DNA from: a virus
Taxonomy: Duplodnaviria; Heunggongvirae; Uroviricota; Caudoviricetes
Direction: 5' to 3' (one strand)
DNA: 18,440 nucleotides
IMG/VR virus record: IMGVR_UViG_2534682158_000018
This document shows positions 1 through 3,000 of the stretch, one piece after another. Position 1 is the stretch's first letter. Every line of letters begins with the position of its first letter. Made by a program: the position numbers.

Positions 1-3000
1 TTAACGGATCAACATCCAGATCAGCAGACACGCCACCACCGGCACAGCAAAATCCATCAGGCTTGCCACATCCCAAGCACGCGGATCAAAACCGCCCCAC
101 CACGGCATATTCATTCGCTTGCCATGCCCGAACATTTCGATCCAGCGATATTCTGCCTGGGTGTGTTCACGCGCAATGAAGAACGTACAACCGGCTATCG
201 CCCCGTAAATCCAGTTTCCGGTAAAAAGACCAATCAGTACCTGCGCAGCCACAGCACAAAGCGCATGAAGAAAAGGTGTTATATCCATTACTCCTCCTTT
301 ATCCGATATCGCTTTGGGAAGTTGATAACAACTTCAATTCTGACTCAAGTTCATCAACTCTTTCAGTCAGTTTCTGGATATGGTGAATCAGTGGAACAAC
401 CAGACGTTCGTACATTACACCTTCGGCAACAAGGCCATTGCTGGAAATAGCTTCAGGAGCATCATCTTCGTTAGCTGGTCGCCAGTGTACAAACTGAGGG
501 GCCATTTCTCCTACTTCCTCGGCAATCAATCCGTAGAATCCCCAGTCACGCCTGTCATTTTCGCATTGCGACCTGTACCACACAGGGCGCATCCTGAAAA
601 TGAGATCGGCGTGCTCTGAATCTATTGTCTCTACTGAATGTTTATAGCGGATAGACGATGTTGACCGCAGCACAGACGAAATTGCGGGGTCAGGATTAAG
701 ATAAAGGTTTGCCGCCGCTGTAGTCGTGCCCAACCCCCACAAATAAAACGCTTCACGGCCAGTCAGCGGGTAAAAATCTCCACCATAACGACCGCTTTCC
801 AGAGCGTTCACTTCCAGTTTGTTTTTCAGCTTATTATCAACTTCAGTTTTTGTGTATCTGGAGCTGATATCCTGCTTTGCACTGGTCATATCAGTCTGAA
901 GCGTTGATACTTTTCCGTTAATTGAGGAAATATCTTCCTTGGCTTTACTGACATCTCCCTTTAGCGTTTTGATGTCATCAGGAATTACTGTCGATGTAGC
1001 CATTTGTCTCCCTCACATCCAGCCACGAAGTTGATGCTCAACAACAATCGCGTATTTATCGAATATTGACGATTTTTTTGCATCATTAATGATGCGCACG
1101 CTTACAAAATATCCGTCCTCCTTAACACATACCGGCTCGCCATTTTCAGTCAGCTCTCCGGTTTCTTTGTACACGTTACCTATCACGTCAATAAGAATAT
1201 CATCCTGCATCGACTCGTCATCATAATAGCCAATACTCTCCATAAAGGCCGAAAAGTCGGCCCTGTCGGCAAATTTGAGTGTTAAATCTTTCATTAGATT
1301 GACTCCCCCACCTGAGCATCAGTCAATGCCTTGTGCCATATTCTGAAATTCCTGACATGACCAAATAAATGACGTAACCCGGCTGTAGTCTGGCCTCCAA
1401 TACGGATAATTGCGGTGTTCTGAATACAGGACCATGTGGTTTTTGTTTCGCTGGATATATGCCCGTTACTTACTGAGCACGTAGACTGCTCTGACTTTAC
1501 ACGCATCCCCATAACCATTTTTTCAAGCGATGCGTTTTCGTTTACCCGTCTGTTAGCTCCTCCAATATCGCAATAAGGAAATCCGTCGTAATCTGTTGAA
1601 CGACCGAAGCCAAGAATAATAGCCGCTCCGGTTTGATGACCGCCGGTATCAAAAACACGTGGCGCTGCATTTGGCGTTTTATACCAGTTCTTATGTACCT
1701 CACAAAGAACCGTAAAAGGAAGATTATAAAGATTATTCTTAATTGGAACTGTAACTATATCGCTTGCGCGGGTCGCCGCCGTCGCTCCTGATATAATAAA
1801 AGATGATACACAAGGCCCATCTTCTACTTGTGGGGTGGCCAGATAAATATAGTCACCAGATACGGTTGCCCCGCTCTGCTTAGGAGAATACTGTATCTGA
1901 GAGCCTATTTTTAACTCCCCATCAATTGCCTGAATTGTTGCCTCTGCAAAAATCCATCCGGTAGCTTCGTCCTTTCTGACTCTCGCTGTAATTCTTGAGG
2001 CAGCACCGCCTGTCATATTAATTTCAAGCGTTTGTGTATCAATATACGCATCACCAAGAAAAGTTGTTGCGCTACCGTCATATTTATCAAACCGGATACG
2101 CAACCTTACCTGCAGTTCTGTTTTAAAACGACATGAGGTTGTCACGTGTTTATTATCGCCTGAGACATCAACTGACTTTGTTGCAGCAATTGATGCCATA
2201 TTAATGGCTGAGGTTTGCCCAATCAGAGAATCGTTGCAGACAAACTTTCCATAGGTAAAACCAAAACTATCCTTCCCGGTTTCGGGAACATCCATATTTG
2301 ACGATCGCCCCCAACTGGCAGGGTTTTCCGAATTGAGCATGTAGTTTGTTCTTTGCCCCTCAATAAGCAGGCCATCACGTTCAAATCGTGGCTCGTCAAT
2401 GGCAGCCTCTGTCAGCACACCAGATTTGTTAATATAGGTTGCTTTCGATGCACGTTTAAACTTAACAATCTTGTCGCCAGGCATCGTTATTTCATCGTCA
2501 CCAATAACAATTTTTTTATATGATGGCGAAAAGCCCGTAATCATATCCAGCGAATCGTTAAATGGTATCCACACATCAGGCAGCGGCTGTAAGACATATT
2601 TATACGGCTCCGCAGCCTGGCTTGCGTACTCTCTGGCTGCATCTTCGCTTGCTTTAGCTGCCGTCTGGCTTGCTGCCGATGCTTTCGCTGAGTTCGCAGC
2701 CGCTGTTTCGCTCACCTTTGCGTTGGTTTCACTGGTTTTTGCTGCTTTTTGACTGTTAGCTGATGCAGTGGCAGAAGCAGCCGCCGCGCTTGCAGAACCG
2801 GCTGCCGCGCTCTCGCTTTGGGCTGCTGCAACCTGGCTGTTTTTTGCCGCAGTTTCACTGGCTTTAGCATTCGTTTCGCTGGTCTTCGCTGCCGTCTGGC
2901 TGGACTTTGCGTTAGTTTCACTCGTCTTCGCAGCTTTCTGGCTGTTAGCCGCAGCAGTTGCTGATCCAGCTGCTGAAGTCGCAGAACCGGCTGCCGCGCT

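Follow-up and report, generated by a model that had tools for sequence, protein, structure and literature searches.

An exchanged tip with a predicted concanavalin A-like fold on the side tail fibre of a lambda-like Escherichia coli prophage

The window considered here is the whole stretch of 18,440 nucleotides (nt) of the virus record IMGVR_UViG_2534682158_000018 (Caudoviricetes). It is the late region of a lambda-like Escherichia coli prophage and is 99.97% identical to E. coli M7424 over 3.8 kb; the M7424 copy of the prophage region adjoins zinT. The minus strand carries, in this order, the tape measure gene, M, L, K, I and J, followed by an open reading frame at 1294..3672 that is the side tail fibre gene, stf. 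Its likely start is the ATG at 3666, which gives a protein of 790 amino acids (aa) at window 1294-3666. An earlier, sequence-only reading of the window described this gene as a lambda fibre base with a foreign, lectin-like receptor-binding module grafted onto it, and the C-terminal end which it quoted (...VRNFRIWHKALTDAQVGESI) is present in our translation. We find that the graft starts at a single base. The account was incomplete, since the tip is predicted to consist of two tandem sandwiches and is part of a larger cassette.

The fibre gene and its recombination joint

The N-terminus and shaft of Stf are lambda-like, as the sequence-only reading had it. Pfam places phage_tail_N (PF08400) on aa 3-133 with E 3.5e-67, at 225 bits where the cut-off is 26.6, and lambda orf-401 shares 58% identity with aa 1-342 (E 4e-79). 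At the DNA level lambda is matched at aa 1-117 alone, with 83% identity. In the C-terminal half BLASTP finds nothing that resembles orf-314, the gp37-like tip of lambda (best E 5.6), which bears out the claim that resemblance to the lambda tip is lost, and no gp37-type family was matched in Pfam or NCBIfam scans of Stf. The 93-aa protein encoded directly downstream (p93 below) has no similarity to lambda Tfa and no Pfam match, the Tfa-type Caudo_TAP included. This gene is therefore a lambda-type stf in its N-terminal domain, with neither a gp37-like tip nor a Tfa chaperone.

The joint between the two parts can be placed by homology. The tip of the Nonagvirus siphophage vB_EcoS_ESCO3 is 96.2% identical to that of the window and the tip of a P2-like prophage, a myovirus, is 94.3% identical. 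In blastn both similarities start at the same base, which is nt 1078 of the gene and 2589 of the window. This is aa 360, immediately ahead of the motif PDVWIPFND, and the tip takes up the last 431 aa of Stf. At their N-termini, neither of these two fibres is related to lambda Stf; that of the P2-like prophage carries PF12571 and PF03406 there and is located after the baseplate genes J and I. Further members of the tip family carry a Tail_spike_N N-terminus. DNA identity of 94-96% from the same base onwards, behind unrelated N-termini, establishes a recombination joint at 2589 and a foreign module on a lambda base. The sequence-only reading had put the break at about 2640, so it was right about the joint but some 50 nt off in its position.

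The guanine plus cytosine content (GC) also changes within the gene. In 200-nt windows it is 0.54-0.58 over 2600-3400 and 0.41-0.47 over 1294-2600. This profile is not uniform, and the C-terminal part of stf is the lower in GC, as had been expected. By codon position, aa 1-342 have a GC of 0.545, with 0.485 at third positions (GC3) and 0.575 at first and second positions (GC12), and aa 343-790 have 0.446, 0.386 and 0.475. One could suppose that this step is purely a matter of amino-acid composition and that there was no recombination event. The shaft is rich in alanine with its GCN codons, and about half of the GC step is explained by the drop in GC12 between the shaft (0.61) and the C-terminal part (0.475). 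However, GC3 drops too, from 0.49 to 0.39, although this silent-site drop is smaller, and composition does not explain a common blastn start in two unrelated phage types. The common start refutes the purely compositional explanation, to which we give next to no probability. The biggest GC3 step of the region is not inside stf at all. It lies at the boundary of J and stf, where GC3 falls from 0.66 in J to 0.49, and it exceeds the step inside stf. Since GC3 is about 0.66 in the tail genes from J to the tape measure gene, stf and the next two genes are GC-poor beside the tail operon and foreign to it in composition.

The shaft contains a tandem repeat at 2716-3132 with a period of 189 nt (63 aa), 2.2 copies and 88% matches (Tandem Repeats Finder). 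Relatives with near-identical tips are 727, 728, 742, 775 or 790 aa in length, and these values suggest a shaft whose length changes with the number of repeats.

Compared with lambda Stf and Tfa, the window has in common the PF08400 attachment domain, the Ala/Ser-rich type of shaft and the genome position after J. It differs in its tip, which is unrelated to the gp37-like, OmpC-binding tip of lambda, and in having the 93-aa gene and a second fibre gene instead of Tfa. Unlike lambda it has no lom gene between J and stf. The gap downstream of J (3727-7140) is about 60 nt (3667-3726) and holds no lom-like gene; a Lom-like gene of 199 aa occupies this position in lambda and in two related loci (L052 and L084).

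Table 1. Coordinates of the fibre genes and their segments in the window
Feature	Position	Strand	Basis
Stf N-terminal attachment domain, lambda-like (aa 3-133)	3268..3660	-	PF08400; nucleotide identity to lambda stf over aa 1-117
Ala/Ser-rich repetitive shaft (aa ~111-359)	2590..3336	-	Translation; BLASTP to lambda orf-401 shaft; GC12 0.61
Recombination junction, first tip base in gene direction (aa 360)	2589	-	blastn to ESCO3 and P2-like fibre
Conserved tip neck (aa 360-402), 'PDVWIPFNDSLDMITG...'	2461..2589	-	Low entropy; near-invariant residues; short beta strands in model
Predicted beta-sandwich 1, GTA head-spike-fibre-like (aa ~403-642)	1741..2460	-	Boundaries approximate
Predicted beta-sandwich 2, diverged Laminin_G_3 / pentraxin-like (aa ~643-790), ending ...FGHVRNFRIWHKALTDAQVGESI	1297..1740	-	Boundaries approximate
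93-aa gene (p93), overlapping the stf stop codon by one base	1013..1294	-	phrog_1361, function unknown
Second fibre gene, 234 aa	299..1003	-	N-terminal peptide, coiled coil, S74 domain

Families and predicted fold of the tip

On the window's Stf, PF08400 is the sole Pfam match above threshold. The tip is recognized by NCBIfam as NF048003, 'phage head spike fiber domain' (GTA_spike_fiber), with 52.8 bits against a cut-off of 36 over model positions 1-181 of 182, and RefSeq names some copies of the gene 'phage head spike fiber domain-containing protein'. A sequence search of the PDB finds Rcc01080 (E 1.5e-7), which is the head spike fibre of a gene transfer agent, that of Rhodobacter capsulatus (RcGTA). 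An exhaustive search of 50%-identity cluster representatives gave 2035 clusters at E <=1e-3 and 454 at E <=1e-10. The tip ends no more than 6 residues from the C-terminus in all 45 representatives that cover it in one stretch. A profile was built from 46 diverse homologues, which are representatives clustered at 50% identity. It matches Rcc01080 at E 1.6e-37 and, at E of about 1e-14, two baseplate wedge proteins, from the Pseudomonas phages Pa193 and E217; its last ~160 positions match an S-layer protein (4e-4) and pentraxins. Laminin_G_3 (PF13385) is matched by 30 of the 46 homologues at E up to 0.01, the best being 1.9e-11. The window itself scores 17.1 bits against this family, below the Pfam threshold of 27.6 (E 0.0062), and only the last third of the model is aligned. 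This match covers exactly the C-terminal stretch that the sequence-only reading had flagged as LamG-type. Its proposal of a LamG-type tip is thus supported by the homologues and by the predicted fold, with the window's own Pfam score below threshold.

A single-sequence AlphaFold prediction of the tip had a predicted local distance difference test score (pLDDT) of 28.5 and was superseded by an AlphaFold2 model made on the 46-sequence alignment. The latter is all-beta, with a pLDDT of 90.7 and a predicted template modelling score (pTM) of 0.87, and has the two-sheet jelly rolls of the concanavalin A (ConA)-like type. The tip is accordingly modelled as a short, highly conserved neck followed by two tandem ConA-like sandwiches. 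We place sandwich 1 in the GTA head-spike-fibre family and take sandwich 2 to be a diverged Laminin_G_3. The coordinates of the model could not be inspected, so the domain borders (aa ~402 and ~642) and the positions of invariant residues are approximate. The neck forms short beta strands in the model. It is the least variable part of the tip, with a mean entropy of 0.08 over aa 363-382, and P21, W24, P26 and G36 (tip numbering) are near-invariant across the 46 homologues. Foldseek matches the model to the tandem laminin LG4-5 and to CBM40; carbohydrate-binding modules and lectin-like domains head the structural matches. Among the models of BFVD, the whole tip matches tail fibres of the lytic coliphages rolling, EdH4 and NBEco002 with query-based template modelling scores (TMq) of 0.88-0.90, followed by many uncultured-phage proteins labelled 'Concanavalin A-like lectin/glucanases superfamily'.

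It is worth considering what the homologues have in common with the window. Rcc01080 (GhsB) is homologous to sandwich 1, and it has been shown by experiment to bind the capsular polysaccharide of its host (PMC10218006; PMC7296036). The RcGTA fibre differs in that it is borne on the capsid as one subunit, with a peptide of (I/L)-G repeats as its anchor (PMC7296036); the tip here belongs to a trimeric tail fibre. Rcc01080 is also shorter. It has 325 aa and the aligned region ends near residue 286, therefore there is no room for a second domain of ~150 aa. Only its residues 2-10 were resolved experimentally (PMC7296036), so it provides no solved structure of the shared domain. In E217 gp45 (8env) and Pa193 gp46 (9b45) the domain decorates the baseplate wedge, or triplex, protein of a myovirus and has no known ligand; the fibre of E217 attaches elsewhere on gp45, at the loop of residues 76-123. 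The comparison with Laminin_G_3, pentraxins and CBM40 is limited by the sub-threshold score of the window, and no Ca2+-binding or sugar-binding residues can be assigned from it.

It must be said that curated libraries already cover the gene and its domains. It matches phrog_1419 (tail protein) from end to end with 1495 bits (aa 3-792 against profile positions 1-793 of 793), and shares 99% identity with the genes annotated as tail fibres in phages Tritos, HannyBb and PhiR63_1. Of 5426 complete E. coli genomes, 1598 match the tip query, 508 of them with at least 80% query coverage. This is a mosaic fibre of an ordinary, annotated kind.

The genes downstream of the fibre

The gene that follows the tip is its constant companion. 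It belongs to phrog_1361, and neither the single sequence nor a 9-sequence profile of p93 has a relative in Pfam, NCBIfam or the PDB. A p93 homologue lies directly downstream of the tip gene, overlapping its stop codon, in 75 of the 75 IMG/VR loci with enough flanking sequence. Homologues also follow distant tips of 26-30% identity in Silvania, Leclercia, Buttiauxella, Atlantibacter and Aeromonas. The scan of genome contigs used a single peptide pattern and gave 16 loci, which is enough for a check of the downstream gene and not for taxonomic spread.

A few loci of this family deserve separate mention. The most distant relatives, L097 from a Solemya symbiont and L100 from Marinicaulis, have a protein of 128-136 aa (M..ITYC.DT.AL...) in place of the ~93-aa family, and these two post-fibre proteins resemble one another. 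One 2.8-kb contig (L090), from a metagenome-assembled genome labelled Collinsella sp., carries an E. coli-type tip, p93 and a second fibre of 234 aa; contamination during binning is almost certainly the source, not a Collinsella phage. IMGVR_UViG_2724679539_000001 (25.5 kb) has two copies of tip, p93 and second fibre in opposite orientations (L067 and L068). An assembly artefact could explain this, and so could a fibre region that is duplicated or invertible.

The second fibre gene starts 12 bases beyond p93. Its protein has an N-terminal peptide at aa 1-22 (window 938-1003) and a Peptidase_S74 domain at aa 116-172 (window 488-658; 24.6 bits against the Pfam cut-off of 22). The motif SSIRYK, read by eye, fits the Ser-x4-Lys dyad. 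If the S74 domain is cleaved off, the mature second fibre would be ~115 aa. The similarity of the protein to the L-shaped tail fibre of T5 (chain 8hqz_d, E 8.4e-6) is with the C-terminal part of that fibre, and the protein matches only the last ~240 of the 1385 positions of the phrog_3299 profile. Elsewhere the second fibre is a different protein. Tritos and ESCO3 have a 346-aa S74 type, and the P2-like prophage has a 303-aa Gp34_trimer type with its own Caudo_TAP chaperone. The first ~22 residues (MATSTVIPDDIKTLK...) are the sole part common to four otherwise different second fibres.

At the end of the window (1-288, minus strand) is a gene for a 95-aa protein that is membrane-like by its hydrophobic stretches (MDITPFLHALCAVAAQVLIGLFTGNW...) and has no Pfam match. 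It is kept at the end of these prophages, with DNA identity of 96% in Tritos and 91% in L052, and comes directly after the gene for the p92 type of partner in loci that have no second fibre. It is possibly a lysogenic-conversion or exclusion gene.

What the tip may bind and how the fibre may be arranged

We argue that Stf is a fibre of exchangeable segments with a ConA-like, glycan-binding tip and a dedicated 93-aa partner, and we consider this reading as a whole to be probable. Its established parts, described above, are where the segments begin and end, which proteins they are homologous to, the fold predicted for the tip, its place at the C-terminus and the linkage of the genes. The lambda-type N-terminal domain would fix the side fibre to the tail tip, and the Ala/Ser-rich repeat region would be the fibre shaft. 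The horizontally exchanged tip, from aa 360 onwards, would take the place of the gp37-like tip of lambda. It is most likely a lectin-type receptor-binding head that makes a reversible first contact with a surface glycan rather than with OmpC, the candidates being O-antigen, the core of lipopolysaccharide (LPS), capsule or something similar. What points to this assignment is the RcGTA homology, the fold, the terminal position and the variability of the tip beside a near-constant gene. The tips are 40-100% identical where the adjacent p93 is 85-100% identical, and this is the pattern expected of a specificity determinant. The module is followed by no other fibre gene in 13 IMG/VR loci or in E. 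ruysiae (L089), so that in these it is the distal end. We infer that the receptor is a carbohydrate rather than OmpC, as the sequence-only reading had proposed, which is reasonable given the fold and the homology to a capsule-binding RcGTA protein (PMC10218006). For the 93-aa protein we infer a role as the dedicated partner of the tip in place of Tfa, probably as an assembly factor or a small structural cap or connector.

Several points weigh against this interpretation. Sandwiches of the ConA-like type also bind proteins, as in laminin LG domains and neurexin, as well as lipids and gangliosides, and some are enzymes. No sugar-binding site is identifiable in the tip. The residues invariant across the 46 homologues (R, E, N, Q, E, R) are likelier to be structural, because they are kept among fibres that presumably differ in receptor. 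There is no hypervariable patch among the 103 distinct close homologues compared. Each 20-aa block has an entropy of 0.1-0.65 bits and the variation is fairly even, so no binding surface can be proposed from it. ESCO3 was grown on DH5alpha, which has no O-antigen. Its tip has a ligand other than O-antigen, unless ESCO3 can do without the fibre on this strain. The RcGTA fibre, moreover, is a single subunit, and the tip here is placed on a trimeric shaft. Literature searches for the tip or its carrier phages returned nothing on function, and the Gifsy-1 Stf paper concerns a lambda-like Stf and has nothing on this tip.

These points raise the question of whether the tip instead binds a protein. 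An outer-membrane protein could be bound on the scaffold of the sandwiches, in the way that OmpC is bound by lambda Stf. The structural matches include LG/LNS domains (laminin G-like and laminin-neurexin-sex hormone-binding globulin domains) and, from clostridial toxins, the C-terminal halves of the binding regions. These bind both proteins and glycans, and the growth of ESCO3 on a rough K-12 strain fits a protein receptor. However, K-12 still displays the glycans of the LPS core and the enterobacterial common antigen. The top structural matches are carbohydrate-binding, and the sole homologue studied by experiment binds a capsule polysaccharide. We therefore think a protein receptor unlikely. 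An enzymatic tip is less likely still. A polysaccharide depolymerase of the ConA-like glycoside hydrolase family 16 (GH16) or polysaccharide-lyase type was considered, some members of this fold being enzymes, and was rejected as very improbable.

A different kind of alternative concerns the arrangement of the fibre. One can picture the tip and the 93-aa protein as a conserved branching node that mainly carries an interchangeable second fibre, which would plug in via its conserved N-terminal peptide of 20 residues. It would then be the second fibre, and not the lectin-like tip, that sets host range, although glycan binding by the tip is compatible with this. The order of tip, p93 and second fibre is found in three unrelated tail types (lambdoid, Nonagvirus and P2-like). 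A degenerate search of IMG/VR for the second-fibre N-terminus found 86 stretches. The peptide lies 12 nt after a p93 of 85-100% identity in 79 of the 79 with enough upstream sequence, and after the tip in 71 of 71. Loci with the p93 type of at least 49% identity always have a second fibre (62/62). Those with the divergent p92 type, at 36-38% identity, never do (0/13); they have a small membrane protein next and then the end of the prophage. DNA similarity between ESCO3 and the window stops 20 codons into the second fibre, at window 944, and similarity to Tritos stops nearby at 960. Beyond the first ~22 residues the second fibres share nothing, and they have neither PF08400 nor PF12571. Since they carry no known tail or baseplate attachment domain, their docking site is presumably the tip, p93 or a combination of the two. 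There are precedents for this logic in the tailspikes of Ackermannviridae such as CBA120, in gp63.1 and gp66 of G7C and in the joints of the T4 long fibre. Their receptor-binding proteins are encoded in a row and the later ones carry short conserved N-terminal docking segments, as 'MATSTVIPDDIKTLK' would be here. Unlike these branched complexes, the window has no sequence relation to their docking domains, and its branching is read from gene linkage. Neighbouring genes are co-inherited anyway and linkage is no proof of contact. The tip and p93 are also found without a second fibre, so anchoring one is not their sole role, and a second fibre of 234 aa, or about half of that if the S74 domain is cleaved off, is very short. 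On balance a branching node is a tentative possibility, and we do not favour it as the main role of the tip and p93. The glycan-binding tip with its dedicated partner remains our preferred reading.

Tail-fibre tips decide which strains can be reached by a phage or by a phage-derived delivery particle. The tip described here is among the commoner ones in E. coli, being present in about 9% of complete genomes at 80% or more query coverage. It has moved among at least 3 tail architectures at a defined joint, aa 360, which makes it a ready-made module for the engineering of lambda-based particles. Anyone building such a chimeric fibre would probably need to transfer the 93-aa partner gene along with the tip. 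Fibre mosaicism in phages is textbook knowledge and is ordinary as a discovery. The less expected part is the downstream cassette, and it is the uncharacterised 93-aa partner and the conserved, putative docking N-terminus of the second fibre that deserve attention. If the fibre does branch, temperate coliphages would combine two specificities on one side fibre. Many lambdoid, Nonagvirus and P2-like phages of E. coli would then have branched fibres, with a tip and a second fibre that can be swapped independently of each other.

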